Below are positions 36,301 to 57,439 of a stretch of DNA of 64,000 nt, piece after piece. This DNA comes from Candidatus Latescibacterota bacterium. GTDB lineage: Bacteria > Latescibacterota > UBA2968. The position numbers and the translations under genes are program-made. Position 1 is the first letter of the stretch; the number at the start of each line of letters is the position of its first letter. The notes under the pieces are model-generated. The model saw only the letters and a list, made by a program, of their open reading frames with translations. It did not search any database and had not been told where the DNA came from. The DNA lies in contig OZ242010.1 in the NCBI GenBank assembly GCA_965204745.1, positions 2,656,001-2,720,000 on the forward strand, given 5' to 3'.

Positions 36301-36494
36301 GTGTCGAGTGCCTTGTCTCTGACTTTGGCGCCATGCCCTTGCCTCGCCAGCCAGTCGCGGAGCGATTCCTTCTCGACATTGGCGTTGTCGCGCCGCCTCT
36401 GCCAGTTGCCGAGGTACGCATAGCCGAGCGCGTCTTGAAAAAACGCGACCACGCGCTGTTGTGTAAAAATCTCTTTTTGACCGACTGCACTCAT
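33387..36494 (-). CDS. hsdR: type I restriction enzyme R subunit
   Basis: RPDIVLYVNGI..ELK, WHTQGSGKS, VDECHR, GFTGTP, LLTGFDAP, QAICRVNR. Confidence 0.96.
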   Translation of the reverse strand: MSAVGQKEIFTQQRVVAFFQDALGYAYLGNWQRRRDNANVEKESLRDWLARQGHGAKVRDKALDTLDKAAALGGNKTLYDANREVYGLLRYGVKVRPNIGEQTQTVYLIDWSNPGNNDFAIAEEVSIAGENARRPDIVLYVNGIALGVLELKRSTVSVSEGIRQHLDSKKKEFIRPFYTTVQLLLAGNDTEGLRYGVIETLEQYYLRWKEADAHLDAGDNPLLRELSQLCNKKRLLEIMHYFIVFDSGTKKTCRHNQYFGVRAAQQRVLRREGGIVWHTQGSGKSLTMVWLAKWIRERVTDGRVLIVTDRTELDEQIEKVFKGVSENIYRTTSGGDLARVLNAGSEWLICSLIHKFGASEDADIDAFFKEIRSNLPAGFRAKGEIFVFVDECHRTQSGKLHAAMKELLPDATLIGFTGTPLLKDQKQRSIETFGPYIHTYKYDEAVQDRVVLDLRYEARDIDQDIASQAKIDQWFESKTRGLTDSAKAQLKQRWGTMQKVMSSRGRLEKIGADIQFDMETRDRLKSGRGNALLVSNSIYSACRLFDIFQRTDLAGKCAIITSYKPAVSDIKGEVSGEGLTEKLRQYDIYRKMLAAHFNAPEDAVMHEVERFEQEVKKRFVEEPRRMKLLIVVDKLLTGFDAPPATYLYIDKQMRDHRLFQAICRVNRLHGEDKEYGYIIDYKDLFRSLSQAIDDYTGEAFDGYDAEDISGLLENRLQKARERLEDLREEIAALCEPVAPPCDTAAYLHFFCAAEGDPDQRKNDERKRGTLYKLVGSFLRAYANLANEMQEAGYAAAEARAIKDEVAYYENVRAEVKLASGDYIDLKMYEPAMRHLLDAYIRAAESERISTFDNQTLVQLIAKRGERSLASLPAGIRANPEAMAETIENNVRRIIIDEMAVNPRYYEKMSALLDALVLQRKRATIDYKAYLERIVALAKRVDHPENAQYPIAIKSPAQRALYDNLKDVHGGEQLKEGKAETAALAVDQAIRRVKKADWRNNRFKEREIQNAIKSELGGDEELTTAIFGIAKARDDY

Positions 36495-38251
36495 GTTCTC
36501 GCACTCCTTTCCGCACGTTCCGAGATAGCTACCGCGGCCCGCCCATCGTCCGTCAGACGGTATTTTTGCAAAGGGCTTCGCGGCTTGTCCGGGATGGTCC
36601 TTTCCAGTAATCCGTCGTTTAGGAGGCGTGCAAGCCGCTTTCTGAAGTCACCCGTGCGGCGCGAGTAGCCCGCGGCTACCAACAGTTTCTCACTCGGGAC
36701 GGCTTCTTGATCGCACGCCCGCAACATGGCAATCTCTCTGTCTGACAATACAACTTGGCCCTCGTCTTGACCAGCTTGGCCTCGGCTTGGCCCTGGCTTG
36801 GCCTCGGCTTGGCCCTGGCTTGGCCTCGGCTTGGCCCCAGCTTGACCAGCTTGACCTTCAGCTTGGCCCCATCTTGGCCCCATCTTGGCCCCATCTTGAC
36901 CAACTTGGCCTTCAGCTTGGCCCTCGTCTTGACCAGCTTGGCCCTGGCTTGGCCCTGGCTTGGCCCCAGCTTGACCAACTTGGCCCTTGTCCTGCCCCTT
37001 CTCTCCTCCCAACTCTGGCTCCTCCATAACTCGTCCTGCGAGTGCCTTCCGCCGAACCGTTGTGACGAATCCATCGGTGACGGCAAATTCCGGTTCTGGT
37101 AAACCGGCCCCAAAGCAACGGTGGATCATGTCCAGCGTTCCGGTTCCCATTCGTTCAATGTATTCGGCGAGATACAGGGATTCGGCCAGCAAGGAGTTGA
37201 CCGGTAGAGAGTTGTGCGGCTCGCGCAACTTTTCGAGGGTCAGCGGGGGCAACAGCCGGCCGGGATTTCGGACCTCTAAGCGGTCCGCGAACAGCATCAC
37301 TTGTACGCTGCCGTTGCTCGTGTAGTCGCGGTGCGCCACGGCGTTGACGATGGCCTCGGTTACCACTTCCTTGGGCATCTCGTAGGTTACGGGTGCGCGG
37401 ACGCTCTCGGCACGGGTGCCGACGTGCAACGCGATCTTGCTCAACACGAAATCCACCGCTTGATCGACCAACTCAAAGACCGTGCCTTTATAGACTTGGT
37501 AGGATGGAATCGGCTTGGCGACTTCTGTTCCGTGGAAGTGGGCGCATTTGACCTCAGAGGAGATCAGAAACCGCTGTGGCGATTTCCCGAATAACAACAC
37601 CGCAGCATAGGTCAGCCGCCCGTTGTTCAGCAGGTTCAGATGGGCCAGCAATTCCTCGGGCGATGCTTCTTCGGCCAAGGGGAACTGCCGTGCCCTGCGC
37701 GCTCGGCGAATGAACCAATGCACGCGCTCGCTGTCGAGATCGTCCAGTGTTGCCCTTGGGCAGGTAGCCGCGTCGAATGGCCCCCTGCGGATCAATTCCT
37801 CGTTCTTCAGATATTCCACCAACGCGGCGTAGAGTTCGGCTTTCAGTTCTTCGGTAGTGTTGAACCGCTTTCGGATCAGCCCGGCTTGGGCCTTGCCGAG
37901 CAGTGCCTGCATTTTGGGGTGCCGGGCACTGTCGTCCTCGCCCTTGACAAAGATCAACCGGTGGACGCCGAGGGCACTCGCCCGGTCAAACTCTCGTTCT
38001 GTCGGCGCGACACCGGCTTCATCCTCGTTGCCATAGCCAAAGCCGAACAAGCCTACATAGACGTCGCACCGCTCGACTTCGTCCAGATAGAGCGCGTCCG
38101 GCCGTCGGTTTAAGGCCGGGGCATCCTCGAACAGGAACACATCGAAAAATCCGCTCAAAAGCGCGTCGCCGCAAACATAGTCGCGCAACGCCGCCCGCTC
38201 TTGGACGAACTCGCTTTGCACGCTGCTGATGAATAGACGGAGTGGGGTCAT
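36491..38251 (-). CDS. DUF4062 + HATPase_c_4 (RecG-C-like) + wHTH protein with a repeat linker
   Basis: LFISSVQSEF..ER, EAIVNAVAHRDY, IERMGTG, TIPDKPRS..QKYRLT. Confidence 0.85.
   Translation of the reverse strand: MTPLRLFISSVQSEFVQERAALRDYVCGDALLSGFFDVFLFEDAPALNRRPDALYLDEVERCDVYVGLFGFGYGNEDEAGVAPTEREFDRASALGVHRLIFVKGEDDSARHPKMQALLGKAQAGLIRKRFNTTEELKAELYAALVEYLKNEELIRRGPFDAATCPRATLDDLDSERVHWFIRRARRARQFPLAEEASPEELLAHLNLLNNGRLTYAAVLLFGKSPQRFLISSEVKCAHFHGTEVAKPIPSYQVYKGTVFELVDQAVDFVLSKIALHVGTRAESVRAPVTYEMPKEVVTEAIVNAVAHRDYTSNGSVQVMLFADRLEVRNPGRLLPPLTLEKLREPHNSLPVNSLLAESLYLAEYIERMGTGTLDMIHRCFGAGLPEPEFAVTDGFVTTVRRKALAGRVMEEPELGGEKGQDKGQVGQAGAKPGPSQGQAGQDEGQAEGQVGQDGAKMGPRWGQAEGQAGQAGAKPRPSQGQAEAKPGPSRGQAGQDEGQVVLSDREIAMLRACDQEAVPSEKLLVAAGYSRRTGDFRKRLARLLNDGLLERTIPDKPRSPLQKYRLTDDGRAAVAISERAERSART
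36764..36985. repeat. intragenic ~11-nt tandem repeats (CTTGGCCCTGG / CTTGGCCCCAT)
   Basis: Read directly; encode a G/Q/A/K/P-rich linker. Confidence 0.85.
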
Positions 38252-38410
38252 GCCTTGAGCCTTTCATCTCCGGGGCGCGGGGGTTCATCGCCAGCCATTT
38301 TCAGAAGGCGATCAAAGGCCGCCAAGTCAGCGCGGGCCGCCCGCTCTTGGAAATAACGTGCCATCCGCAAGGCGGCTAATTTCTCCGCCACTGTCACATT
38401 GATAAACATG
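38248..38410 (-). pseudogene. 3' fragment of a small HicB/RHH-like antitoxin
   Basis: FINVTVAEKLAALRMARYFQERAARAD..GDEPPRPGDE; second copy at 50803-50940. Confidence 0.6.
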
Positions 38411-38427
38411 GAAGCGTATCCATTCAT

Positions 38428-39024
38428 TTATGAGTTAGCCCGTCTCATTGGGCGGCTCAAGTCATACACACAGCGGGCCCGATCTTTGAAAGCTACATCT
38501 ATCAGGAACTTCAGTGTCGTCTCGTTGATCCTATTTCAGGGTGCGACGGAAATTTTAGCTTCCGGCTCAAGAAGGTTGTCGATAATCCGATCAGGCATAT
38601 ACGGATACCTACGCTCATACTCTGCCCTAGTGTTGATCGATGTCCATGACTTGATGTTAGGATAGACTATTTCTTTTTCGTAATCGTGCGCCACCGAACA
38701 GCGATCGGATACTCCCGGCAGATTAATTATTAGAATCCCCGACTTCTTGTTGACGGCGCCATCGTACATACTGGAGTAAATCTCCCAGTCAATGTGTTTT
38801 CGACGTTTCGTCTCGGTTCCAACCAAGACAATCGTCACCGTGGAGTCCCTCAGATATTTGTCTCTGATAATTTCTCGAATACGTTCGTCGGGGAGATAGT
38901 CAGGGATATCTCCTGTATCGACGGACGCATCAATGAATATCGAGTTCGTAGTGCCGATTTTTACCAATTCATCTTTATACCGTTGGTCATCCTTGTGGTA
39001 ATAGCTAATGAATACCTTGTGCAT
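38428..39024 (-). pseudogene. ThsB-like TIR protein (MTH538-like) with an in-frame TGA at 38536-38538
   Basis: HKVFISYYH, IRDKYLRDSTVTIVLVG, HIDWEI. The frame continues past TGA as NRINE...DLSRPMRRANS. Confidence 0.8.
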
Positions 39025-39883
39025 TGATTCCTCCTTTGGAGTCTATGTTGGTCGGTTCATTGAATATCCGCCGAAGACCGCGCGATACGAGCGTTACCGC
39101 CTGATGGATATGCGGCGTCCGAGCGAGAATGGCGTTATCTTCGGCAGATAATCCGTTGTGCAGATCGCATGGCGAGTAACTTTCAAAGCATGGGCGGCCA
39201 TCCCAGTCAGAACGGGAACCGGCCCAAGGCTCTACAAGCCCGATAGTTTCAGCGATGTCGCGGGCACATCCGCCGAAACCGCCGAGCAAGAATACCGGCT
39301 GATGCGACTGAAGGGACAAGAGCGTTTCCTCGGCGATACCCGGCATACATCCTTTGTAACCGTCCACTCTTCCGCCGAGCACAATGCGCGCCTGAGTTTT
39401 TTCTTTTATGACGGCGCGCATTGTCGTCAGTCCTTCGGTCCATTCGTCGTCATTTGGCTCATGCGTCGGAAATTCCAGTCGTCGTTCCCAATCCAACTGA
39501 GAGCCATCCTGTGCGAGAAAGACGAGGTGCGCGGATTTTTCGTGCCCGGCGGAGAACGCAGCCAGTTTATTCGCTGTCATCCGAATATGCACGGGCCACG
39601 CCAAATAGTCGGTCACAGTGATCTTTCCGCTGTGAGAAGGATGGTCCTGATACCGCACGATCAACTCAAACAACAATTCGGTAAAGCCGTAAAGGCGCAG
39701 ATCGCCGCCGTAAGCCAGACTCGTCCCCGAGGAGAGCAGATGCGATGCGAGTGCGGCCATTGCATCTCGCAGGTGTTCATCGCTCAGTCCGAGCACGGTC
39801 ATGTCAGGGCTTTCCGATATCGAAATCGCCACAGTGGGTGTCATTTTGGTCTTTTGAAGGGTCATTGGTTTTCCTCCATCCAC
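39005..39883 (-). CDS. SLOG-domain protein (TIR-associated type)
   Basis: VAISISES, LAYGGDLR, LTTMR, ARIVLGG, MPGIAEE, PVFLLGGFGG. Confidence 0.8.
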   Translation of the reverse strand: MDGGKPMTLQKTKMTPTVAISISESPDMTVLGLSDEHLRDAMAALASHLLSSGTSLAYGGDLRLYGFTELLFELIVRYQDHPSHSGKITVTDYLAWPVHIRMTANKLAAFSAGHEKSAHLVFLAQDGSQLDWERRLEFPTHEPNDDEWTEGLTTMRAVIKEKTQARIVLGGRVDGYKGCMPGIAEETLLSLQSHQPVFLLGGFGGCARDIAETIGLVEPWAGSRSDWDGRPCFESYSPCDLHNGLSAEDNAILARTPHIHQAVTLVSRGLRRIFNEPTNIDSKGGINAQGIH

Positions 39884-41040
39884 TTCGTCAGTGTCAGGGT
39901 ACGCACGTTTGGCGCGATTTCCGAGAATAACCGAGCCTCGTCAGTGCCTAGCAGTGGTTCAGGATATACAATTGTAGAATCCGTCTTACTCTGGCGATCC
40001 GGTAGCGTCGCCAGCAAGATCAATTCGGGGGGCCGGGCCGTGAACAGCACGTTGGGGTATGTCGCACGAAAAGGCTCGACGCGGCAGTGCCACAGGTAGG
40101 TTCGGAAAACTTCGTCAAGCAGGCATTCCGTGACTGCACCAATCCGATCTCGCTGATCTGAGCTCATCCTAACGATAGGCACATTGCCCATGTATGGGAT
40201 ACTGCGCGGATCAATGTCGCGGAGGCAATCCACGACTACCATTGGCACATGCCGTCGTTTGGCTTCAATTACCTCTATACGGCACCAATCGCGGGACGAG
40301 TAGGAGTCCGTGTGCAACGCCACGAAGGCACTGGTTTCGATCTGATGCAGTATAACCTCCTGAAAGGATAATCCAGGCGGAATGTCATAGACATCAAAAA
40401 AGCTCGACAAAACACTGTTTTGGTGTAGCCAATCGCGGCTACTGCGTGCGACAGATTCACCGTCATCGTCGTGCTTTGAGTGACTGATAAATACTTGGAA
40501 TTTCTTCAAGTATTCGGGAAAAGGTTCCTCTGCTACTTCTGGCCGGCGGAACAGGTCGAGACGATACCTCAGCATTCGGCTAAATTCATTGGTGAGATCG
40601 CGAACGAGACGCCGCTCCCGTTCCGCATCTGGGCCTTCCCAACGATCCCAGCGCAATGCCTGCTCTTCAAATTGCAGTTCACGATCTCCAGCTTCCATTA
40701 CAACGGGGAAGAGTCGAGTGAGTAGTCGGCCTTTAGCCTGTGCGTTTTGGGAAAGTTCCTGAACGTAGTTCGACCATGCTTGGTCGCTGTCGAGTGCCGA
40801 GTCCACCAGCACGACGACTGCGGTAATTTCTGCTTCGTCCCAGTCAATCGGTAGGGGCACAAGATCGCCAGGCACCGCTTCACTGCGGTAGAGAATGCTC
40901 AAGCCTAGATCGCCGGCAACATTTTGATGGAGGTCTCGGCCGAATTTCGAGTGGAGCAAATCAGCCACCTTGCGACCACTTTTATTTGAGGGGTGCCAGA
41001 CGACATAGAGAGCGAAAAATGGGCGCGTTGTTGTTTCCAT
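39862..41040 (-). CDS. TIR-domain protein
   Basis: VFISHSKHD, FFDVYDIPPG, YSSRDWCRIEV with the catalytic Glu. Confidence 0.85.
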   Translation of the reverse strand: METTTRPFFALYVVWHPSNKSGRKVADLLHSKFGRDLHQNVAGDLGLSILYRSEAVPGDLVPLPIDWDEAEITAVVVLVDSALDSDQAWSNYVQELSQNAQAKGRLLTRLFPVVMEAGDRELQFEEQALRWDRWEGPDAERERRLVRDLTNEFSRMLRYRLDLFRRPEVAEEPFPEYLKKFQVFISHSKHDDDGESVARSSRDWLHQNSVLSSFFDVYDIPPGLSFQEVILHQIETSAFVALHTDSYSSRDWCRIEVIEAKRRHVPMVVVDCLRDIDPRSIPYMGNVPIVRMSSDQRDRIGAVTECLLDEVFRTYLWHCRVEPFRATYPNVLFTARPPELILLATLPDRQSKTDSTIVYPEPLLGTDEARLFSEIAPNVRTLTLTKWMEENQ

Positions 41041-41153
41041 ATCGTGTCAAATGCTCCTAAGTGAGTGCGTTACCTCTGAAAGTCAGTTGGCAAAGGCTTG
41101 CGTTCCTGTACCAACGACGCAATGTCTTGGTCTGAGTACGTGACTGCCAGGCG

Positions 41154-42383
41154 TTACTCCGGTTTGACCAACCGCACCCGTCCCGTGAGAAGTTGTTGCA
41201 TCATCCCCTGCTTGATGGCACTGGTCTTATCCCGGCGTCGTTCCAGCGCGGCGATCTCGGCGTCCATGTCGGAGAGGATGGTGGCGATGGCGCGTTGCTC
41301 TCTGATAGGCGGTATCGCGATCACGAGGGGGGCTAAATCTTTTCCATGAACATGTGGTTGAGCACCGCCGGTTTGAGCGCGATAAATTTGTTCTTGTCTG
41401 AGTAGCATCTGATAGAAGATATATTTGATCGAATAGTTTGGAGCATCGCTGATAGTTGAACAGTCCGAAGCGAAAATTGGCCTGTCCCAATAAGCTACAT
41501 AGCCGGCATAAGCACCTGATGCGCTCACCGTTATCGTTTTGCCAGCGCGGTTCGCGTAATTGTGAAAGTAGGCGGGTTTCTTTCCTCCGGCTACAACTGG
41601 CACGATACCGGGCGTTAGAGAGCTTTCGGTTATCGGTTGCCCTTTCCTGATAGAGACTATCTCTCCCAACCGCTTCGTCTCCCACGCCCCGCTGAACCCC
41701 GGCAGGCGCGTCTTGCCGGTGAGGAGTTGTTGCATGGTGGCCTGCTTGATGGCGCGCTTCTTGGCGATCAGCGCGTCCAATGACTGGATTAGGCCATCCA
41801 CATCTGACAACACCTCGGCGATGGCGCGTTGCTCGGAGAGAGGCGGTAGTGGTATGCGAATATCCCTAAGTGCTCGCTTCGATATGCCAAAGACTTTTAG
41901 ACCGGTAGCAAGCCGACGCAACTGTATCTTCACGGGTGTTTTTTCCAGAAGATAGCCGCGATAGCCGGCACGAGTTTTCTCGTTCTTTGCCCTCAAAAGG
42001 AAAGTGTGGAGTCCTGAAACTGCTTCAGTCGCTCCGAGATTGCGAATTTCCACGCTTTTTCCGACACCTGCTTCGTCTTCGGAAGCATCCGCGACAATTA
42101 GATCGCCATCACGAAGGCGAGGAACGGTGACATTTTTATTTGCCAAAAGACGCGGCACTTCGTCAGAACAAAAATCTATGAAGTGATGAAAGCGGGTATG
42201 GATGTCACCGTAATGCACATACGATACAGTGCCAGTATGGCCCAGGTCGGCTCTTGAATTAGAAGCGGTGGGCAAATAGTCGAAAAGCTCGCCAATGGAG
42301 AACACAGACCAATCAGTTGGAATCACCCCAACCTCAGTGTGCTTATATCCTATCGGTGCGGGTTTTGTCGTATCCGCGTTCAT
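41154..42383 (-). CDS. hsdS: type I R-M specificity subunit (allele A)
   Basis: GYKHTEVGVIP.DW, two TRDs, EQRAIA..LSD and KQGMMQQLLTG conserved repeats. Confidence 0.94.
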   Translation of the reverse strand: MNADTTKPAPIGYKHTEVGVIPTDWSVFSIGELFDYLPTASNSRADLGHTGTVSYVHYGDIHTRFHHFIDFCSDEVPRLLANKNVTVPRLRDGDLIVADASEDEAGVGKSVEIRNLGATEAVSGLHTFLLRAKNEKTRAGYRGYLLEKTPVKIQLRRLATGLKVFGISKRALRDIRIPLPPLSEQRAIAEVLSDVDGLIQSLDALIAKKRAIKQATMQQLLTGKTRLPGFSGAWETKRLGEIVSIRKGQPITESSLTPGIVPVVAGGKKPAYFHNYANRAGKTITVSASGAYAGYVAYWDRPIFASDCSTISDAPNYSIKYIFYQMLLRQEQIYRAQTGGAQPHVHGKDLAPLVIAIPPIREQRAIATILSDMDAEIAALERRRDKTSAIKQGMMQQLLTGRVRLVKPE

Positions 42384-42432
42384 GTATGTAACTGTACCTT
42401 TCAAAAAGAAGAACAGGCCGATTTATATTAAA

Positions 42433-43512
42433 TAGGACTTACGCAAAAAAGAACGGGATCGACCCCCCATCCTCACATTGGAGGTCTGTATGGCGAAACC
42501 AACGCGCCTGGATTACTGCCAGTATCTGCTTAGCAGTCCGCTCAATTATACCCTGACTCATTTCGCAGATCACAGCGACCGGTTCACGCATGATATGCTC
42601 AACCGCTATCTGGGTGGGGATCGCGTCTCGCCGCGTGTGATCTGGAAAAACGTCAAACCCCACCTCACGTCGACCGCAAAGGGCGTGATTCTCTTTGATG
42701 ACACGGTCTTAGACAAGCGCTATGCGAAAAAGATGGCCCTCGTGCGTCGGCAATACAGTGGCAATGCGAAGGGGGTCATCAATGGGATCGGTGTGGTGAC
42801 GTGTGTGTATGTCAATCCGGTTACCGATCAGTTTTGGTTGATTGACTATCGCATTTACGACCCAGAAGGGGATGGAAAAACCAAGTTAGACCACGTCAAA
42901 GAGATGTTGTCGCTCTTGGTCTATCACAAAAAGCTGCCTTTTGATCGGGTCGTGATGTTGACTTGGTATGCCACCAAAGCGGTCATGCTTCACATTGAGC
43001 ACTTACAAAAGATCTATTCCTGTCCTATCAAAAAGAATCGCCTCGTGGACGATTCGTCAGGTGAAAACCCCTATCAACGGGTCGATGCCTTAACTTGGAC
43101 AAAACGCGAACAGGCCACAGGAAAACGCATTAAACTCAGAGGGTTCCCTAAAAACCACAAGGTGAACGTATTCCGGGTCGCGTCTGCGACGAGACGCACG
43201 GCGTATATCGTAACCAACGACTTGACTCAAACCGACCCGTCAGTGGCACGAGCAGTGTGTCACTTGCGTTGGAAGATTGAGCAAGTTCACCGGGAAGCAA
43301 AACAGGTGACGGGACTTGAAAAGTGTCAATGCCGATTGGCACGCATTGTGCGAAACCACATCGGGTGTGCCTTCCTCGTTTGGGGACGACTGACCCAAGT
43401 CGCCTATCAGACTGGACAAACCATCTATCAAGTCAAACATGGCTTATGGGAGGACTATTTGAGACAACAACTCAAAACACCGGCGATACCAATGACCCTG
43501 GCGTAAGTCCTA
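42433..43512 (+). mobile_element. IS701-family insertion sequence
   Basis: Terminal IRs TAGGACTTACGC / GCGTAAGTCCTA, flanked by duplicated TTAAA (or TAA). Confidence 0.88.
42490..43506 (+). CDS. IS701-family DDE transposase, probably defective
   Basis: LFDDTVLDK, RRQYSGN, RWKIEQ.HRE.KQ. The second-Asp region reads VVMLTWY instead of the usual MD(S/T)WY. Confidence 0.82.
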   Translation: MAKPTRLDYCQYLLSSPLNYTLTHFADHSDRFTHDMLNRYLGGDRVSPRVIWKNVKPHLTSTAKGVILFDDTVLDKRYAKKMALVRRQYSGNAKGVINGIGVVTCVYVNPVTDQFWLIDYRIYDPEGDGKTKLDHVKEMLSLLVYHKKLPFDRVVMLTWYATKAVMLHIEHLQKIYSCPIKKNRLVDDSSGENPYQRVDALTWTKREQATGKRIKLRGFPKNHKVNVFRVASATRRTAYIVTNDLTQTDPSVARAVCHLRWKIEQVHREAKQVTGLEKCQCRLARIVRNHIGCAFLVWGRLTQVAYQTGQTIYQVKHGLWEDYLRQQLKTPAIPMTLA

Positions 43513-43529
43513 TTAAAGCCTGCGTTAAA

Positions 43530-43655
43530 TATAATAGACAAAGTAAAACGCCCGTGTTCCATTAGATAGGCCAGTGCTTTAGAAAGCACGACTGGATCCT
43601 CTCGCATGATGGCAGAAATAATGTCTGTATCCAGTACTACAGGTCGTAGAGCCAT
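43530..43655 (-). pseudogene. truncated PIN (VapC-like) toxin
   Basis: VVLDTDIIS N-terminal motif; cut at the palindromic repeat. Confidence 0.75.
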
Positions 43656-43888
43656 CAGATGTTTGCCTGTTCAAAGAAATCCCGGCGGCGAGCTATGGCC
43701 TCGATCTCATCGATATCCTGCTCAGAAAGCCCTTGGTACACTTGGGCGGCCAGTTTCAGTATATCCTCGGCCGATGGTTCGGTTAGAGGCTCTATTTCCA
43801 AACGGACTTGCTGTCCTTGGGGAATCTCTGGTGCCTTTACCGGTTTGAAGACGCCATTTTCATAGACGGCTTTCACGATAGGTTTCAT
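43655..43888 (-). CDS. DUF104/AF2212-like antitoxin
   Basis: KAVYENGVFKP...IPQGQQVRL; coupled to the PIN gene. Confidence 0.85.
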   Translation of the reverse strand: MKPIVKAVYENGVFKPVKAPEIPQGQQVRLEIEPLTEPSAEDILKLAAQVYQGLSEQDIDEIEAIARRRDFFEQANI

Positions 43889-44043
43889 GCGTTTCTCCTC
43901 GTCTTAATGTCGCGAGTCTCGAAAAAAAATAAATGGCTGGCTTTCGCGCCATTGGCAACTCATTTCTCCTCCGAGATCAACTGCAAAATTTCCGGTGTCA
44001 GACCGCGCTGGAGCGAGGGCCAAATCGGCATTATTGGCTCGCA

Positions 44044-45180
44044 TTACTTAAAGGCAAGCGCATCGCGGTCATCAAAAGGAATCTCGCGGCGGGATTCCCG
44101 GCGGTTGGCTATCTCCAAGTCCGCGAGCTCTGCTAGAATCTTTCTGGCGACTTGCTTTGCATAAAGTGGTGGTACTGCGTTGCCGATGAGATTACATACG
44201 GCCTCCATCTGATTCGTGATAAAGTGGTAATTCTCTGGAAACGTTTGAAGCAAAGCCGCCTCCCGAACAGAGATAGTGAACCGTCGCTTGTCCGGGTGTC
44301 CGAATCGGCCTTTGCTCGCTGTCGTACATCCGCCCGTGATCGTAGGGGATACGCGATCCCACACCATTCTGCCGTAAGTGTTTGTGAATCCCTTGTATCC
44401 ATTCTGGTGGCAGCGTGGACGCACGGACTCGTCAATTCCCAACCAAGTTTGTCCAGGCTCTGCCGCTTGCAGTCGTGCCTTCACTTGCGGCTGGAGGTCT
44501 CTAACCACATGCCAGTTGTACGCTTGGGGGTTGGCGCGTGCTGTCTTTAGTGTGATGGGTTCTCCCATGTGACCGATGGTTTCCCTCACTGTATTCCAGG
44601 GTTGCAAGGCGGAACCTTCCTCTGGCGACTGAGCGTAGGTCGGTTCAGGGAATGGAATCTTGAATCCAAGCCCGGCCAAGAGGACCAAACGCTGTCGGGA
44701 TTGCGGAACGCCAAAGTCGGCCATCTGCTCAATGCGCCACTCACATTGATAGCCACTCCGATGAAGGATTTTTAGAAACGCATCGAAAACGGGCTTTCCG
44801 CGACTTACAAGGCCAGAGACATTTTCCATCATGACGGCCTTGGGCCGAATAGCCTCAATGAACTCGGCCATGATGAGAAGGAGTGCATTGCGCGGGTCGT
44901 CCTTCTTGTACTTGGTCGTTAGGGAACAGAAGCCCTGGCAGGGCGCGCAACCGGCCAACAATGAGATTGGCTCGCTACCGGTTGTCTGTAAGAGCTCCGC
45001 TGTGTTGACCTCATAGATATCCTTTTCGATCATAAAGGTTCGCCGGTTGTTCCATTTATACGTTCGCGCCGCGATGGGATCGTTTTCCACCGCTGCCGAG
45101 ACATGAAAGCCCGCGTCACGCAAGCCCTTGGTAAGACCGCCACAACCGGCGAATAGATCTATTGCAAAGGGTTTGTTCAT
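44044..45180 (-). CDS. dcm: C5-cytosine DNA methyltransferase
   Basis: [42 protein letters not shown]. Confidence 0.93.
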
Positions 45181-45182
45181 TT

Positions 45183-47127: not shown

Positions 47128-47137
47128 TTTGCTCTCC

Positions 47138-47527
47138 TTAGAAATGCTGGACATTCGCAACTCGCCACTGATTCGTTGCGGAAAGGACAGACGCGATACC
47201 CGGGGAAGTCAGAAGAGAAGCGGCAGACGCTGTCTGTTGAATCTCCGGGTAGGCGCGATAGAACTCCCGGAATTTCCGCAAATTTGTGGGCGAGCAGCCT
47301 TTCAATCCACTGGCCTTGAGTTCGGCGGACAGCCGCACAATCAGTTTTTTGCCGTAGAGCCTGCTACGATCTACCCCGCCTTCCTCGTACTCGACGATGT
47401 ACCAGCCGAACAGCCAGTTGCGCGTCACCAAGTACGTGTCCATGACACGGGCGGCAGAGCGTTGGCTCTCCTCGTGGGTCCGCCGACATAAATCGACGAG
47501 ATGCCCAAAATCAAATTCCCGACTCAT
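47138..47527 (-). pseudogene. DUF1016/YhcG N-terminal fragment
   Basis: NWLFGWYIVEYE.GG.DR..YG, G.S.TNL..FR.FY; the nuclease half is absent. Confidence 0.75.
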
Positions 47528-47564
47528 GGTGTCACCTCCATTTTTTTTTGTTGGTCATCGTCCG

Positions 47565-48740
47565 CTATTCCGCATCTTCTATTGGCTTGTCGATAAATAG
47601 ATTGACGTAATCCGTGTACTCGAATCGACGGTTGCGTTTTCGCCCGGTGATCTCTTGGAGGATGCCGTGCTCGATAAGTTTGGTTACGATATTGTTGGCG
47701 ACGGGATATGTTGACTCAAGCAGGCCCTGAACCTCGGCAACCGAGATAAAGGGTTTTTGGTAGAGATGTTCGAGCACGCGATGTCCATTGGCAGCGGTGC
47801 GCCCAAGTTGATCGGTAATAATCTGCCGGTGGTTCTCGCGCATTGTGAGAATCCTTTGAGCAGTATGCGTGGCTTGTTGGCTAACCAAAAAAACACCTTC
47901 GAGAAAAAAAGTAAGCCAGGACTCCCAATCACCTTGGTCGCGTACATATTGAAGGTGGTCGTAATACTCTTGGCGATACAACTTGAAGAAGTACGAAAGG
48001 TAGAGCACGGGCCTGATCAAGGCTTTCTGATCACATAGCATCAAAGTGATGAGCAGGCGCCCAAGGCGACCGTTGCCATCGCGGAAGGGATGGATAGTCT
48101 CGAATTGTGCGTGGACAAGGCCGACCCTAATCAAGAGCGGGAGCGATGTGTCCTCCTGAAGGAAGCATTCCAACTCGTTCAGGGCATTTGGTACCTCGTG
48201 AGGCGGAGGAGGAACAAAGATGGCATCGGACAAGGGGCCGGGAGGGCCGATCCAGTTTTGTAACAAGCGCAACTCTCCAGGCGTCCTGTCTTGTCCACGA
48301 GTGCCAGTTAGCAACTCCTTGTGGATTTCCCGCAGGAGACAAATAGAGATTGGCCGGCCATCCTCAAGGCATTTGAGACCGTGATTCATGGCGCGAACGT
48401 AGTTGATTACCTCATCGACATCCCGTGGCCGATCAGGGGAGAAAATGCGGGCTTCGGCGGCGAGAACATCATGTAATGAACTCTGGGTGCCTTCAATCTG
48501 GCTGGAGAGCACGGCTTCCTTGCGGACGTACATGGCGACAAAAAGATCGGGATGTGGTAGCGTCTGGATCGAGCCATCGAGACGGCCCAAGGCGTGGTCG
48601 GCCTGCGAGAGCAGAATTTGCATTTTGCCCTGAAGATTGATCGGCGGGTTCGGCGGTAGCGGCTTGGGGATAAAAGCTCGGTAGCCTCTGGCCTGAGCGA
48701 CGTACCGGCCAGCCCGAGTCTGCATTTGCGTCGTTTTCAT
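47565..48740 (-). CDS. Fic family protein with C-terminal HTH
   Basis: SSQIEGT, HPFRDGNGRLGR. Confidence 0.93.
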   Translation of the reverse strand: MKTTQMQTRAGRYVAQARGYRAFIPKPLPPNPPINLQGKMQILLSQADHALGRLDGSIQTLPHPDLFVAMYVRKEAVLSSQIEGTQSSLHDVLAAEARIFSPDRPRDVDEVINYVRAMNHGLKCLEDGRPISICLLREIHKELLTGTRGQDRTPGELRLLQNWIGPPGPLSDAIFVPPPPHEVPNALNELECFLQEDTSLPLLIRVGLVHAQFETIHPFRDGNGRLGRLLITLMLCDQKALIRPVLYLSYFFKLYRQEYYDHLQYVRDQGDWESWLTFFLEGVFLVSQQATHTAQRILTMRENHRQIITDQLGRTAANGHRVLEHLYQKPFISVAEVQGLLESTYPVANNIVTKLIEHGILQEITGRKRNRRFEYTDYVNLFIDKPIEDAE

Positions 48741-48742
48741 AG

Positions 48743-48808
48743 GTAACCGTACCTTTCCAAAAAAAGAACAGGCCGATTTATATTAAAGCCTGCATAAAAT
48801 ATAACCGA
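48743..48808 (-). repeat. ~65-bp palindrome+RBS leader repeat (module boundary)
   Basis: Matches 53635-53700 and the IS-split copy at 42388-42432 + 43513-43534. Confidence 0.9.
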
Positions 48809-48809
48809 A

Positions 48810-49060
48810 GTGAGGGCCAAATCGGCGGGCATGCCGGGAGCCGATAAGCCTCGTCCAAATTTGTGCATCCTGTGGGCGAGAAGCCGGTCAGAGGCGGCCA
48901 GTTCGTCCTGATCAATCTCATAAGCTCCGGTCTCGATGTCGATAACGACGAATTTACCTTCGTCGTTAGGGCCAACATGGGGGCTTATATCTCGGTCGTA
49001 AATCTCATCGCCACGGCGAGCAAATTCCTCTTTGCTGTACCGAGGTTTTGGTACGGGCAT
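48810..49060 (-). pseudogene. small DUF5678-like protein, apparently frameshifted
   Basis: PRYSKEEFARRG..IY, GKFVVIDIETG.YE; the tail appears to shift frame after DRLL. Confidence 0.5.
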
Positions 49061-49136
49061 TTTGTTTCTCCTTTGCATGACAGGCGGCCAAAATCACTCG
49101 CCTCAAGATACTGAACGCAACGGAACGAATCCCTCC

Positions 49137-50402
49137 TCACGGCGAAGTACCCCTCGGACTCGGCGCCGAACCTCGGTGCAACGTCAACCGCAAGTAGTCC
49201 TCGGTCGCCTCAAACTCCGGGTCGACGCCGTTGTGCGCCCGCATCAACGGAACGATCTTGTTCCGCACCCCCATGCCTCGGGCATCAGAATAGCCATAGT
49301 CCCGCAAGGTCTCGGAGATGAGCGGATTGCGGGGAACCCGCTGCCCAGCGATCATCTTTTTGACCGTCATGCCGTTTTGCAGCGCGCCAGGGCTGAGTAT
49401 CTCTATCCGATCCGCATAACGGACTACCTCGATTTCCTCATACCGCGTCCAGTCCCGATGCGTCAGCGCGTTGACAACGCCTTCGCGCAACACTTCCAAC
49501 GGATAGTGCCAGTGTCGCTCCCGGCGCATAGACGCTTCCACTCGACCGGCCTCCTCGGATACAAACGGCCGCATCGCATCGGCAAGGCGTTCGATCAGCC
49601 CCTTTTCCACCCGTTCACGGCCCCCTGACAGCACCTGATAAAGATCGACGAGCGGCCCTTCAATCACTTGGTCGTCAAGGGCCTCGTAGGTTTTCTCCGG
49701 CCCCTCAAAGCACATCCAGCGGACGCCAGCATGGCGCAACAGGCGGCGCGGCCGATAGCCGAACAGGATCAACCCGGCGATCGTACAGGCAGGTGGGCCG
49801 TCTTCCCGCTCGGTCATGAATCCCAGCGCGCAAAGCCGCTCGTTCCAGGCCTCGTCGGTTTCTGGCACTTCCCAGTCGCCGACAATCGCGGTGAGGTAGT
49901 CCATCAGCCGTTCTCGGCTCAAATCGCACAAGCCGCTGCCGGAAACGGGCAATAGCTCCGTGTGAATCAGCCCGCCGGCCGCGAAAAGCCGCGCCTGTTG
50001 CTCGCGCGAGGCCAGCCGCGAGGTGCTGCCAATCCGTATGTAGATGTCTTCCCTGCCGCGATGCCGGACGACATAAGGTTTGGTCGTACCTTGCGTAACG
50101 GTGACAACCGCGACGCGGCGTCCATCATCTATCGGAACTTCCTCGTAAAACGGCAGGATCATGGGATGCACCACGCGCCCAAACACGGCATCCATCACCC
50201 GCTGTTCGAGATCGTCTCGCTGTATGCCGGTGATGCTACCGTCGTCTTCCACGCCAAGCAGGACGCGCCCCCCCTGAAAGTTGGCGAGCGCCACCACCTC
50301 CCGCGCCAGTTGCTCTGGACGCAAATCATCCCGCTTGAACTCCACGCCAGAGTTCTCGCCGCCAGCGATCAGTTCGAGAAGTTCCGCACGTTTCATAACC
50401 AT
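49137..50402 (-). CDS. Schlafen/AlbA_2 + HATPase_c_4 protein
   Basis: GENSGVEFK, VALAN..GG..LLGVEDDG, REGVVNAL.HRDW. Confidence 0.88.
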   Translation of the reverse strand: MVMKRAELLELIAGGENSGVEFKRDDLRPEQLAREVVALANFQGGRVLLGVEDDGSITGIQRDDLEQRVMDAVFGRVVHPMILPFYEEVPIDDGRRVAVVTVTQGTTKPYVVRHRGREDIYIRIGSTSRLASREQQARLFAAGGLIHTELLPVSGSGLCDLSRERLMDYLTAIVGDWEVPETDEAWNERLCALGFMTEREDGPPACTIAGLILFGYRPRRLLRHAGVRWMCFEGPEKTYEALDDQVIEGPLVDLYQVLSGGRERVEKGLIERLADAMRPFVSEEAGRVEASMRRERHWHYPLEVLREGVVNALTHRDWTRYEEIEVVRYADRIEILSPGALQNGMTVKKMIAGQRVPRNPLISETLRDYGYSDARGMGVRNKIVPLMRAHNGVDPEFEATEDYLRLTLHRGSAPSPRGTSP

Positions 50403-50429
50403 CTCCTTTGGAGACCGTCATCCGTATCG

Positions 50430-50940
50430 GCGGCAGAGCGTTGGCTCTCCGCGTGGGTCCGCCGACACAGATCGACGAGATGCCCAAAATCAAATTCCCG
50501 ACTCATCGCGTTCTCCCATCTTTTTGTGGTTGGTCATCGTCCGCTATTCCGAATCTTCCATTCTCGGTTTGAGTACGTGACTGCCATGCGTTACTCCGAT
50601 TTGACCAACCGCACCCGCCCCGTAAGAAGTTGTTGCATCATCCCCTGCTTGATGGCACTGGTCTTATCCCGGCGTCGTTCCAGCGCGGCGATCTCGGCGT
50701 CCATTTGGGCCATACGAACTTTTTGCCTCGCAACTGTTGGACGGACCGCCCGCTCTTGGACGAACTCGCTTTGCACGCTGCTGATGAATAGACGGAGTTG
50801 GGTCATGCTTTGAGCCTTTCATCCCCGGGTCGCGGGGGTTCATCGCCAGCCGTTTTCAGAAGGCGATCAAAGGCCGCCAAATCAGCGCGGGCCGCCCGCT
50901 CTTGAAAATAACGCGCCGTCCGCAAGGCGGCTAATTTTTC
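50430..50940 (-). repeat. mosaic of six gene stubs duplicated from elsewhere in the locus
   Basis: Each piece matches another position in 38191-52620 (listed in findings). Confidence 0.88.
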
Positions 50941-51823
50941 ATCTATTGGCTTGCTTCTTGGAATTGGTTTCATAAAGAGTGTCCGTAATGGCTCCCCGAA
51001 AAACCTCCTCATTGAGGAACTGCAAGAGCTTTTTCGCTTTGGCCTTATCAGCCGGAAAAACTATCCTGTCCTGTGAAATAGCAATCTCGACACCATGCCC
51101 TTTAGAACTCGATTGAATCTCTTGGGCGGAAAAATTATCGAGAACGCAGGAATCTCTGAGCATGGCGAATCGCTTGCGGGACCATTGGTCTGCCCCGGTT
51201 ACCTGTGACTCAATGTCTTCAGGCGCGAGCAACGCATGAGTCAATACCTCTCGAATCTCTTTATTCGATGCATCCTTATAGAAGTCGGATAATGGCAGGA
51301 AGGTGTTGACGTAGCGAAAGTTTTGGAACAACAACTTGCCTTCGTCTGGATCATACACAGCACTCAATTTTCTACCTAGCGTCAAAATCGGACGTTCTAA
51401 ACTTTTGTAGGTATCGCTACTCAGGATCAGAAAATTCCCCGGATGGATAACGTGAGAACGAGTAAAATTCTGGAAGAGCATCAACTCTTTGTTCTGAGTA
51501 CTTCGCGCAAATGCCACAATACCTTTGACAGAATGGTTGGACAACTCATCGTCGCCGAGAGCATCAAGATTCAAGATGGACAGGCTATCTTCATTTTCTA
51601 GCCAGTCAGGTAGTTTGTAGTTCGACAAGCAAAAACGCTCATGTTCCTCTGGTTGGTACCCGGCGTTGAACTCAATCTCGTCTATTTCGCGAATGAATTC
51701 GTCATATTGGCTCTGCCAACTTTCAGCAAGGCTGTCCTGTAACTCTCCACTAAGCGGGATTTGTAACAGGCATGTTTCTGTACGATCCTTGACTATCGCC
51801 GCAAGGTGAAAGTTTTTAAGCAT
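50939..51823 (-). CDS. kwaB: Kiwa KwaB-like (DUF4868) protein
   Basis: Family-like C-terminus LLQFLNEE.F...IT...YETNSKK; coupled to a TM gene in a defence context. Confidence 0.75.
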   Translation of the reverse strand: MLKNFHLAAIVKDRTETCLLQIPLSGELQDSLAESWQSQYDEFIREIDEIEFNAGYQPEEHERFCLSNYKLPDWLENEDSLSILNLDALGDDELSNHSVKGIVAFARSTQNKELMLFQNFTRSHVIHPGNFLILSSDTYKSLERPILTLGRKLSAVYDPDEGKLLFQNFRYVNTFLPLSDFYKDASNKEIREVLTHALLAPEDIESQVTGADQWSRKRFAMLRDSCVLDNFSAQEIQSSSKGHGVEIAISQDRIVFPADKAKAKKLLQFLNEEVFRGAITDTLYETNSKKQANR

Positions 51824-52352
51824 TGGAATTTCCTTTGTGTAGATAAATGTTCTGAGAGAGTGCTACTGTTTGGATTTCTACTCTGGGCCGCCGCAAATCT
51901 TTTTTGCTAATCAGAAGGTTGGACATTCCATGCTGATCCTTTACAGCATAGAACCGATAACGAAATAATAAACGCATTACCGGATTAAAATGAAAGGCAC
52001 GGGCATGGACAAGGGCTATGATAATGATAATAAGTACATACCCGCTCGTGATCGGCTCGCTAGCAAATGTTGAGCCTCCTGATCGGATAAATGGAAGAAG
52101 GTAGATGAATAGGAACGTTAGCACCTCCTGATCTTTGCGTTCAAATTCTTGGATATAGATCATGTGGCTTTGTGCCTTCTTTGACATATGCTTCAACAGT
52201 ACCCAGCAGACAACCACCATTAAAAATGCTATGCCTAGCCATATCCAGCCCTTCCGCGGCTGACCACACTCGAACTGACTGATGGCTATAGCAATCAGTA
52301 CTGGAGACAAGGACGTCGTCACGAAAAAAAATTGGGCGAAGTAATTCATCAT
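51816..52352 (-). CDS. kwaA: Kiwa KwaA-like membrane protein
   Basis: About 4 TM segments; FLFIYLLPFI and FNPVMRL...YRFY motifs. Confidence 0.75.
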   Translation of the reverse strand: MMNYFAQFFFVTTSLSPVLIAIAISQFECGQPRKGWIWLGIAFLMVVVCWVLLKHMSKKAQSHMIYIQEFERKDQEVLTFLFIYLLPFIRSGGSTFASEPITSGYVLIIIIIALVHARAFHFNPVMRLLFRYRFYAVKDQHGMSNLLISKKDLRRPRVEIQTVALSQNIYLHKGNSNA

Positions 52353-52353
52353 G

Positions 52354-53634
52354 TCAAAAACTCCGTGACACAGTTGGTTTGCCCAACCGCACCCGCCCCG
52401 TGAGGAGTTGTTGCATCATCCCCTGCTTGATGGCACTGGTCTTATCCCGGCGTCGCTCCAGCGCGGCAATCTCGGCGTCCATGTCAAAGAGGATGGTGGC
52501 GATGGCGCGTTGTTCGGCAAGTGTGGGAAGGTCGATCTGCACCTGTGCGAGGTTTCGGCTATTGATATGGACGACCGCGTCGCCTTGGGCCATACGAGCT
52601 TTTTGCCTCGCAACTGTTGGGTGATTCATCAGGTAGCCGAGGTAGAGCGAGTTTTGACTCAATGGGGTCAATACTACAACATCGCCACCGACATAGACTT
52701 GCTCTTCACCAAGATATGCGGCACAGCGACCTATTTCTTCTGAAGTTTCACCCGACCCGGCAAAAAGGAGATCGCCCGTCTTGATTGGCAATGACTTCGA
52801 GGCAACAGACAAAGGAATCCGTGCAACTGGATTCAAAACATGATCTTTGTATCGTGTATATAGCTCTCCATAACGGATACACGGAACGCCTTCGTCAGAA
52901 ACATCATCTCGCTTAATTCCACGGCCCTTTGAAAAGGGGCCAATCTCTCCCAACCGCTTTGTCTCCCACGCCCCACCGAACCCCGGGAGGCGCGTCTTGC
53001 CGGTGAGGAGTTGCTGCATGGTGGCCTGCTTGATGGCGCGCTTCTTGGCGATCAGCGCGTCCAATGACCGGATTAGGCCGTCCACATCTGATAACACCTC
53101 GGCGATGGCGCGTTGCTCCTCAACACTCGGTGGACAAGGAATCTCGATCATTCGCACATCGTTGGTATTGATTGCCGGATAATTTGATCCCGCAAGTATC
53201 TTGCTAATTTGTTTGTTCACGACATGACCAAACAGATGGGCAAATAAGAAACCAGGATCGGATAGGTTGGGCTTACTTCTGATGACAGCGAATCCAGTTG
53301 AGCAAACCGCATTTGCGATTTGTCCTCGAAAGAAGAGGTGAGCCATTAGATTTGGGCGAACCGTTGACATAAGGATATCGTTTTCGCGCAGTACTCGTCG
53401 AGCTCTTGAAGGGGCCGTCCGAAAAACAATTTCAGTAAAACCAAGAAGTTGTCCTGTATCCACTTGCTCGAGCGATATATAGTTAAATTCGTAATCTGGG
53501 TCGGTATTATTTGGAAGATTCTCGGGGTCAATATCTGCGATATCTCCCAACCGCTTCATTTCCCATTCCCCATCGAGATCCGGCAAGTCTTCGGTGTTGC
53601 CCTGATCTTGAGGGCGAGTCGTTTCCGCGTTCAT
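52354..53634 (-). CDS. hsdS: type I R-M specificity subunit (allele B)
   Basis: Two TRDs unlike allele A; near-identical conserved central and C-terminal regions. Confidence 0.94.
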   Translation of the reverse strand: MNAETTRPQDQGNTEDLPDLDGEWEMKRLGDIADIDPENLPNNTDPDYEFNYISLEQVDTGQLLGFTEIVFRTAPSRARRVLRENDILMSTVRPNLMAHLFFRGQIANAVCSTGFAVIRSKPNLSDPGFLFAHLFGHVVNKQISKILAGSNYPAINTNDVRMIEIPCPPSVEEQRAIAEVLSDVDGLIRSLDALIAKKRAIKQATMQQLLTGKTRLPGFGGAWETKRLGEIGPFSKGRGIKRDDVSDEGVPCIRYGELYTRYKDHVLNPVARIPLSVASKSLPIKTGDLLFAGSGETSEEIGRCAAYLGEEQVYVGGDVVVLTPLSQNSLYLGYLMNHPTVARQKARMAQGDAVVHINSRNLAQVQIDLPTLAEQRAIATILFDMDAEIAALERRRDKTSAIKQGMMQQLLTGRVRLGKPTVSRSF

Positions 53635-53736
53635 GTAACTGTGCCTTTCTAAAAGAAGAACAGGCCGATTTATATTAAAGCCTGCGTTAAATATAACCGA
53701 ATTGTCACGCCATATTAAACGCTGCGTTTAATATGG
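53635..53736 (-). promoter_or_regulatory. leader repeat with two tandem palindromes immediately downstream of hsdM
   Basis: TTATATTAAAGCCTGCGTTAAATATAA (53670-53696) and perfect CCATATTAAACGC-T-GCGTTTAATATGG (53710-53736). Confidence 0.7.
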
Positions 53737-53770
53737 AAAAGAAATGCTTCCATATTATTCGCTCGCATTA

Positions 53771-56212: not shown

Positions 56213-56461
56213 GTGTGTTTCTCCGTGGTTATACCAATACCAAACAAAAGCATGCCTACAACGCAACAAATAATAGACGGAATGGGGTACAACTGGCCGG
56301 TTCCCAGTCCATCGTAGGGACAGGCACAGGGGCCTGTCCGAGTAGGATTGCTCCGCGGCACCACGCAAGCCTCCCGCCAGTTGAGTATAACTGCGATAGT
56401 CCATCGTAGGGACAGGCCGAAATTCTCCTCATGTACTTGAAGTTGAAAACCGATAGCTCCC

Positions 56462-57223: not shown

Positions 57224-57439
57224 AATTTTCTCCTTTAGCGTCTCATCCCCGCCGCCGCGCCGCTACCCAAGTGCGTGCCCCGCTATGTCCGCACCGCCAC
57301 CCGTGCGTGCCCAGCCCTGCATCCACACCGCCGTGTGCGTTGTCCCGGCTCATATTCCCCGACCTCTTGTATCTTCGGGCGAGCGCGGTGGCCTTCTCCC
57401 CTCTTGTATCTTGGAAGTAAGGGTTAATTAGGAGTTGCG

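Follow-up and report, generated by a model that had tools for sequence, protein, structure and literature searches.

Activity of a Coxiella Fic protein is reportedly induced by DNA binding (PMC10628234). In Yersinia pseudotuberculosis, the Fic-helix-turn-helix protein CccR represses its own promoter via inverted repeats (PMC9755527), and in Shewanella oneidensis the SoFic dimer binds its own promoter within the 100 bp that precede the start codon, with no operator motif defined in the available excerpts of the published account (bioRxiv 10.64898/2026.07.09.737422). The DNA analysed here, a stretch of 64,000 nt from a Candidatus Latescibacterota bacterium (contig OZ242010.1, positions 2,656,001 to 2,720,000), is called the window throughout. 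It contains a Type I restriction-modification (R-M) locus in which a SoFic-type gene (fic) and two hsdS genes (hsdS-A and hsdS-B), all headed by the same repeated leader, lie between hsdM and hsdR. We consider it probable, at roughly 60%, that this repeat is the 5' control region of SoFic-type fic genes, also placed before hsdS, in a locus that is a recombination mosaic.

The likeness to CccR and SoFic, as far as the excerpted accounts describe them, lies in a class II Fic protein with a C-terminal DNA-binding domain and, for CccR and the window fic, in a palindromic or inverted site upstream. However, the CccR site consists of two 10-bp repeats 26 bp apart (PMC9755527), whereas here 27-bp palindromes form arrays with a 40-nt period that recur across phyla, and, unlike in CccR and SoFic, copies of the site, at which binding is predicted, also precede non-fic genes, namely the two hsdS. 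Defence genes nested between hsdM/hsdS and hsdR are also described for PrrC/EcoprrI, TgvAB/Vibrio VPI-2 and DarTG2 with RptR, and in one of these cases a local dedicated repressor, RptR, binds promoter repeats (PMC12707154, PMC11411939, PMC12255303). Unlike these cases, the present locus holds many sets (Kiwa, Schlafen, SoFic, GHKL-Dcm, a toxin-antitoxin relic, TIR-SLOG-TIR and DUF4062) together with two full hsdS genes and a stub; its candidate regulator is a toxin-type enzyme, and the RptR site, given in those accounts as TAGCTA direct repeats, is unrelated to the palindrome. The hsdS copies share conserved regions that permit exchange of target-recognition domains, as in SpnIII/ivr, tvr and the 'epigenetic invertons' (PMC6265443, PMC7672463, PMC6620402). 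Unlike in the pneumococcal shufflons as described there, the repeats are direct, no recombinase is adjacent, and exchange would irreversibly delete the 11 kb between them.

The repeated leader and fic control regions

The leader is ~70 nt long and joins an AT-rich 27-bp palindrome to a ribosome-binding site (RBS). Its three copies (L1 to L3, with palindromes PL1 to PL3), all on the minus (gene) strand, and two further palindrome units lie at the following positions.

53750-53766, minus: U0, a half-unit remnant of the palindrome that adjoins the hsdM stop, 40 nt upstream of P0 (inverted-repeat pair I3)
53710-53736, no strand: P0, a perfect 13+1+13 palindrome, CCATATTAAACGC-A-GCGTTTAATATGG, 40 nt upstream of PL1
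53635-53704, minus: L1, with PL1 (53670-53696, degenerate), the GAAAGG RBS and the ATG of hsdS-B
48741-48812, minus: L2, with PL2 (48778-48804), the RBS and the ATG of fic
43513-43534, minus: 5' part of L3 (left arm and centre of PL3), 24/24 against L1
42384-42432, minus: 3' part of L3 (right arm of PL3, RBS), before hsdS-A

In a 25-kb self-comparison of the locus, L1 matches L2 at 88% identity over 77 nt (E 4e-21) and L3 at 89% over 66 nt; L3 is interrupted by a 1080-bp insertion sequence (IS), and its piece past the IS matches at 24/24 positions. All leaders share an exact core of 30 nt. The original prediction of a ~65-bp repeat before hsdS-B, fic and hsdS-A is thereby confirmed, and the three blocks so headed, put at ~5-6 kb each, measure 4.9, 5.3 and ~5.9 kb. 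A search of the 5.48-Mb genome found leader matches in this locus only, and the palindrome, with up to 5 substitutions allowed, at four sites, every one of them here. The palindromes of all three leaders are imperfect, with outer arms that agree at 9/10 positions, and P0 agrees with the consensus of arrays found upstream of fic genes elsewhere.

Fic proteins are marked by a catalytic motif, HxFx(D/E)GNGRxxR, and an N-terminal inhibitory motif, (S/T)xxxE(G/N). The window protein has HPFRDGNGRLGR at residue 217 and SSQIEG at residue 79, and it matches Pfam Fic_N (1e-28) and Fic (1e-18) and, over residues 19-382, PADLOC SoFic. The inhibitory motif of CccR is quoted as S59ARIEG (PMC9755527). Alignment of the window sequence to solved SoFic chains (residues 46-382 for 3eqx and others, residues 25-371 for 7cb8) predicts a C-terminal winged-helix domain, and a search for Pfam Fic-like_C gave no match in this protein at E <= 0.01. 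A palindromic site is present within ~150 bp upstream of the fic start.

Elsewhere, too, the motif goes with fic. A 111-nt query run on 61 related genomes, including the window's own (G000), found it in 10. In the related genome G001, three palindrome units 40 nt apart lie directly upstream of a solo fic amid housekeeping genes; the corresponding site in G000 holds a different gene, and the insertion borders are not readable from this comparison. The palindrome also occurs at most ~50 nt past the stop of another hsdM family, 29% identical to the window's hsdM. In three of the five loci of this kind a fic gene or decayed fic fragment follows directly or within ~1.3 kb, and in the other two an IS21 element or unrelated open reading frames (ORFs) come after the palindrome. 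In G057 the palindrome is followed by fic, GHKL, Dcm and hsdS, an order that resembles the window's middle block.

A palindrome pattern scan that took one genome per species gave 50 loci, from many phyla. In 18 of them a Fic homologue lies downstream of the palindrome, ~50-210 nt away by tblastn coordinates; these homologues show 54-79% identity, 16 being near full length and 2 fragments. One further locus is a relic in the related genome G018. Many of the other 31 have chance-looking AT-rich centres and a few are consensus-like orphans; among the 14 non-fic loci inspected, some adjoin IS elements. The 23 fic-linked arrays comprise 55 units (1-5 each); of the 32 adjacent pairs, 29 are spaced by exactly 40 nt and the others by 39-41 nt. 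Their consensus is CCATATTAAA[C/G]GCAGCCTTTAATATGG, and the gene-proximal unit is usually degenerate, as in the window leader. A GAAAGGCAC-like RBS stretch is also present in the fic leaders of other phyla, and variant palindromes lie upstream of fic homologues on Synechocystis pSYSX, PCC 7002 pAQ6 and Microvirga plasmids. The pSYSX (Synechocystis sp. PCC 6803) and pAQ6 proteins show 54-56% identity and have a ATATTAACGAAA...TTTCGATAATAT-type palindrome just upstream of their genes (L160 and L161); the pSYSX fic sits within a Type I R-M cluster, on the strand opposite to it. A metagenome scan with a 25-nt leader pattern gave no matches, and our literature searches found no description of these palindrome arrays.

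Within the window's phylum the association is clade-specific. Fic homologues were found in 88 of 168 genomes, and 30 of their loci were inspected. All seven with at least 62% identity have consensus palindromes, at -143/-103/-63 or -101/-61/-21, and none of the 23 with 47-50% identity does, many of these having other AT-rich palindromes at -35 to -50. The predicted winged helix-turn-helix (wHTH) helix reads '(T/S)Y..AN..(V/I)' in 23/23 members of the palindrome clade and differs in 23 other homologues, and helix sub-types co-vary with palindrome sub-types in this comparison of 23 against 23 sequences. Because the palindrome is clade-specific and its type tracks the sequence of the wHTH helix, it is probably a Fic operator/promoter. 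The conservation of the sequence itself across phyla also argues for recognition by a protein. The proposed fic control region consists of one or more 27-bp palindromes at 40-nt spacing and a ~40-nt leader with the RBS. The palindromes would most likely be operators bound by dimeric Fic through its C-terminal winged helix, leading to autoregulation, and the promoter would be located in or between the palindrome units.

Two other possible binders were rejected. The Fic C-terminal fragment that follows palindromes in locus L016 had been considered as a domesticated regulator and is a mere 44-aa remnant ORF. The Fic-like_C region of the DUF4062 protein has no BLAST similarity to the C terminus of Fic, and relatives have DUF4062 homologues without the palindrome, which further disfavours this protein as the binder.

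How the leader came to stand before hsdS is suggested by hsdS genes outside R-M loci. The orphan hsdS genes of G000 (position 1556734), G018 and G016 have the same first codons as hsdS-B, and in all three a 30-45-nt tail of hsdM (...HLAKMGMT) is followed by its stop, AA and then ATGAACGCGG. In the window and in the G018 relic, by comparison, one or more palindromes and the leader stand between the stop of the hsdM tail and the hsdS ATG. From these tight hsdM-hsdS junctions elsewhere, and from the RBS stretch in fic leaders of other phyla, the sequence comparison indicates that the leader belongs originally to fic and that this hsdS lineage captured it. Plausibly, fic would first have inserted behind hsdM, and a deletion would then have brought the leader up against the start of hsdS. 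Among the 168 genomes of the phylum, a leader before hsdS is found in G000 and G018 only. The orphan of the window's own genome, hsdS-C (C1:1556734-1558000, plus strand), is intact and has neither hsdM nor hsdR within 9 kb. It matches hsdS-B at 97% over its first 98 nt and hsdS-A at 99% in the central conserved region; similar orphans lie at G018:C1:4882263 and G016:C1:1862814. hsdS-C could be a reservoir of target-recognition domains.

A mosaic hsdM-hsdR interval

Pfam and PADLOC profile searches of the locus ORFs uphold the earlier gene calls (hsdM, two hsdS, Kiwa, Schlafen, Fic, GHKL, Dcm, TIR/SLOG/TIR, DUF4062 and hsdR), and the locus has a complete Type I R-M set (hsdM, hsdS, hsdR). In gene order, its parts are these.

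53771..56404, minus: hsdM, 877 aa (Pfam N6_Mtase, HsdM_N; PADLOC MTase_I, E = 0)
52354..53634, minus: hsdS-B, 426 aa (Pfam Methylase_S; PADLOC Specificity_I)
51816-52352 and 50939-51823, minus: Kiwa, the adjacent pair KwaA (PADLOC 4e-36) and KwaB (PADLOC 1e-58)
50746..50940, minus: copy (95%) of the DUF4062 upstream region and first 61 nt, matching 38191-38385
50562..50740, minus: hsdS 3' stub, 96% identical to the hsdS-A 3' end at 41125-41267 (PADLOC Specificity_I C terminus)
50429..50562, minus: copy (90%) of the fic 3' end, the intergenic sequence and the DUF1016 5' end, matching 47450-47583
49137..50402, minus: Schlafen gene (Pfam AlbA_2 and HATPase_c_4)
48822..49078, minus: small conserved gene (initial portion of 'orf113') that breaks off at the left junction of L2
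47565..48740, minus: fic, SoFic-type, 391 aa (Pfam Fic_N, Fic; PADLOC SoFic 4e-116)
47138..47527, minus: DUF1016_N stub, 129 aa (Pfam; PADLOC PDC-S02)
45183-47168, minus: GHKL ATPase (Pfam HATPase_c_3; PADLOC REase_II)
44044-45180, minus: Dcm methyltransferase (Pfam DNA_methylase; PADLOC MTase_II)
44012..44046, minus: scar past the Dcm stop, 17 nt as after the hsdM stop and 18 nt as before L2 (repeat D19)
43655-43888, minus: AF2212-like antitoxin (Pfam AF2212-like)
within 43535..43888, minus: PIN-like stub starting MALRPVVLDTD, which ends at the left edge of PL3
42433..43512, plus: IS, 1080 bp, with a DDE transposase ORF at 42478-43506 and target duplication TTAAA
41154..42383, minus: hsdS-A (Pfam, PADLOC)
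39862-41040, 39005-39883 and 38536-39024, minus: TIR_2, SLOG cluster 2 and ThsB-like TIR (Pfam)
36491..38251, minus: DUF4062 / HATPase_c_4 / Fic-like_C protein (Pfam)
33387..36494, minus: hsdR, 1035 aa (Pfam HSDR_N, SWI2_SNF2; PADLOC REase_I)

The start of hsdS-A is probably the ATG at 42383 and not the TTG at 42404, judging from homology with hsdS-B and the orphan hsdS genes. The central and C-terminal conserved regions of hsdS-A and hsdS-B are 94-95% identical. An ORF at 50591-50806 is a fusion with a DUF4062-like start and an hsdS-like end. Residues 2-71 of the small gene before L2 are 84-87% identical in two relatives, whose ORFs continue differently; contigs of all four public runs described below have an extra CGAG after 48868 in this gene, either a strain difference or a frame-shifting assembly error. 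The trio at 38536-41040 looks like a Thoeris-like variant; its PADLOC ThsB matches are weak, the SLOG protein has none, and a SIR2 or Macro effector is lacking.

Orthologues of hsdM occur in 33 other genomes of the phylum at 55-91% identity. We compared twenty 20-kb orthologous loci (63-92%), in 17 of which hsdR was reached. Their common backbone is hsdM, a first cargo slot, hsdS, a second slot, usually a DUF4062-type gene, and hsdR. Slot 1 holds nothing, DUF1016, Schlafen, both of these, or unidentified sequence; slot 2 holds up to ~11 kb, with Kiwa in one locus; and DUF4062 or weaker HATPase_c_4-region matches lie upstream of hsdR in most of the 17. Each locus has a single full-length hsdS, and none of the 20 has two. 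In these 17 loci, 3.3-15.5 kb separate the hsdM stop from the hsdR start, against 17.3 kb in the window. Despite this widely varying cargo, the palindrome was found in 0 of the 20 loci. Weak matches, with ~3-4 substitutions by eye in 16 fixed positions, were put down to chance because none adjoins an hsdM stop and none looks palindromic.

The window interval is marked by scars of earlier joins, namely repeats D3, D5, D6 and D8 and gene stubs, so that at least four repeat scars apart from the leader copies are present. Junctions at the hsdS 3' stub, the DUF4062 5' copy and the DUF1016 5' copy lie at repeats unrelated to the leader. The left borders of L1, L2 and L3 are unlike one another and two of them truncate upstream genes, which fits illegitimate recombination and not a precise crossover site. 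Arrangements combined in the window exist singly elsewhere: locus L115 has hsdS-Kiwa-(DUF4062-like)-hsdR, and locus L018 has Fic...GHKL...Dcm...hsdS, like the middle block. The G018 relic runs from leader to hsdS 5' end, DUF4062 upstream region and hsdR 5' end, an order that points to a simple ancestral arrangement. Given the scars of past joins, this relic and the shared scaffold, the hsdM-hsdR interval appears to string together three or more variants of a single Type I scaffold, with later deletions. The 17 kb would have been built by homologous and illegitimate recombination that left the stubs behind.

In relatives with an hsdM of just 73-79% identity, the Schlafen AlbA_2/HATPase_c_4 protein reaches 76-94% (mostly 85-93%), and its gene sits before, after or beyond the R-M genes across genera and families (loci L073-L121). 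This excess over hsdM and the variable position suggest recent exchange of the gene among these genomes.

Competing explanations for the leaders and palindromes

Several observations weigh against a fic-derived control region in a recombination mosaic. The leader palindromes differ from P0 at 7 of 27 positions, and the window's own fic is preceded by a degenerate unit only; operator function is less certain for the repeated leader copies than for P0. A simple sigma-70 scan gave nothing at L2 or L3 and only weak 9-of-12 matches near L1, and the region has 8 sigma-70-like sites against a mean of 11.1 in shuffled sequence. L033 and L054 are among the few loci that have a consensus-like palindrome but no fic. 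In these two Latescibacterota records the palindrome lies at about position 6001, between a DUF4143/AAA_14 ATPase gene and glnS, and may be the relic of a lost fic. No unique reconstruction of the order of events is possible. Several breakpoints also lie at, or a few bases from, palindrome edges: the PIN-like stub ends exactly at PL3, and a deletion of hsdM in G018 ends within a half-unit. From this position of the breakpoints, the palindromes may also promote breakage. Fragility of palindromes could account for breakpoints at their edges.

If the leader were a portable, Fic-responsive element, Fic could co-control all three blocks, with infection releasing them jointly. A Fic dimer would repress hsdS-B with Kiwa, fic with GHKL-Dcm, and hsdS-A with TIR-SLOG-TIR; infection would drive Fic off the DNA or activate it, so that specificity subunits and abortive-infection cargo are released; and the IS in L3 would have freed hsdS-A from Fic control. 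We regard this extension of the fic-derived control region to a shared switch as unlikely.

It is also unlikely that the direct repeats drive recurrent deletion and duplication through RecA, producing subpopulations that differ in hsdS specificity and abortive-infection cargo. The leaders, with their 30-nt exact core, and the hsdS conserved regions (140-176 nt, 94-95%) are long and alike enough for this, the stubs record such events in the past, and the orphan hsdS elsewhere, 97-99% identical in its 5' end and central region, is a possible reservoir. However, the hsdS repeats are all direct and none is inverted, and deletions between direct repeats are irreversible, unlike the inversions of shufflons; relatives, moreover, have one full-length hsdS per locus. 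In Logan contigs of four public runs compared over 36-56 kb, in which rare variants are not visible, we saw no variant that lacks a whole block between two leaders or two hsdS repeats. Related strains in other samples do diverge from the window, at 47245 and 47545, but neither breakpoint is at a leader. Contig joints with sides shorter than 30 nt were disregarded. The joints 41836->53543 (X5, X10 and X12) and 41834->53537 were rejected as deletions, as they fit the orphan hsdS-C, with its hsdS-B-like 5' end and hsdS-A-like central region. Another joint, 47472->50452 (X10), falls within the D8 repeat, whose exact stretch exceeds the assembler's word, and may be an assembly-graph artefact. Bins 50675-52008 (Kiwa) are uncovered in X1 with no bridging contig, and are hence uninformative. 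Parts of the locus are present in several runs with sponge or marine metagenome labels.

It is improbable that the palindromes act as hairpins in the transcript (processing or attenuation sites, or translation leaders) and not as DNA operators. The arrays do lie inside a co-directional operon, right after hsdM; the P0 hairpin has -12.6 kcal/mol (z -3.4), and the whole L1 region has z -2.9 against shuffled sequence, with alternative pairings of neighbouring units. However, the palindrome of the repeated leader forms a weak hairpin (-4.2 kcal/mol, z -0.66; z -0.8 for L2), and the palindromes are not followed by a T-tract. It is the sequence, and not mere pairing, that is conserved across phyla and tracks the helix type of the protein, and the solo fic arrays lie at ordinary intergenic promoter positions.

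The original prediction took the locus for a possible cassette array, in which whole defence modules would enter or leave behind hsdM at the palindrome, through RecA or a recombinase in trans. The part that stands is a modular mosaic with direct repeats usable by RecA; the palindrome as insertion or excision site is not supported. That reading could draw on the leader at the head of three blocks of 4.9-5.9 kb, the stub cut exactly at the palindrome edge, the G018 deletion ending in a half-unit, the varying number of units between genomes, and the occurrence of the palindrome behind two hsdM families with varied genes after it. The prediction's PIN gene cut at the site is partly sustained, in that the ORF ends at the PL3 edge; the stub has no Pfam match, and we take it to be PIN from its motif. 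Yet the 20 orthologous loci with equally variable cargo lack the palindrome and have their breakpoints elsewhere than at the repeat, the leader-hsdS junction is restricted to two genomes, the motif accompanies fic even when fic stands alone among housekeeping genes, the three left borders are dissimilar with truncated neighbours, and other junctions of the same locus lie at unrelated repeats, which together leave the cassette array very improbable. Integron and dif-module arrays likewise have a short structured repeat at the head of successive gene blocks; unlike them, this locus has no integrase and imprecise borders, and the repeat, which has promoter/RBS-type features of a single gene family, is absent from most junctions as well as from all 20 related loci.

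The prediction also noted that no recombinase is visible in the window, and this holds: a Pfam scan of 22 locus ORFs and 31 ORFs of at least 110 aa outside the locus found transposases of the DDE and DEDD kinds only, and no tyrosine or serine recombinase domain. An adjoining IS110-family (DEDD) element at 57392-58720 was rejected as a hidden recombinase, its 27 examined copies lying in CCTCTYRC repeat arrays unrelated to the palindrome. It has 77 genomic BLAST matches, with at least 27 near-full copies at at least 95% identity, and most of the copies examined are flanked by CCTCTYRC-type short-repeat arrays. The 1080-bp IS was likewise rejected as a palindrome-targeting element, because its 13 copies have varied 5-bp target duplications. 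It has inverted repeats TAGGACTTACGC and a 342-aa DDE transposase, its 13 near-full copies are 95-100% identical, and it matches Pfam DDE_Tnp_1 and DDE_5 weakly, so that its earlier IS701 label is tentative. In all four runs, contig depth on this IS exceeds that of its flanks 10-50-fold.

Adjoining genes and meaning of the locus

Three features lie beside the subject. The DUF4062 gene contains a tandem repeat with an 11-nt period (36751-36997) in the linker from HATPase_c_4 to Fic-like_C; it encodes a Gly/Gln/Ala/Pro-rich stretch, and contigs of run X10 show small indels there. In a gene for a TPR protein (56462-57223), the 3' half consists of degenerate tandem repeats with copies 9-24 nt apart, CTG/TTG-rich on the plus strand. 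At 17342-25990, two large GTPase genes (MMR_HSR1, one with weak Dynamin_N) and AAA_22/AAA_16 and AAA_21 ATPases stand in a row and may form a further defence cluster, 8-16 kb from hsdR.

The finding belongs with two known kinds of arrangement, autoregulation by Fic-wHTH proteins and defence genes nested in Type I loci, and an integron-like reading of the locus is removed as unsupported. It supplies a concrete motif, 27-bp palindromes with a 40-nt period, for one widespread SoFic clade of defence toxins. Such proteins bind their own promoter region in the published work, as far as its excerpts go, and the motif makes the operator testable, as it does the link between DNA binding and toxin activity. 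A family of Type I R-M loci in this phylum serves as scaffolds with two cargo slots, and the comparison shows how a triple composite arises from them. If the sites are functional, methylation specificity would be tied to a toxin-regulator via a reused control region.

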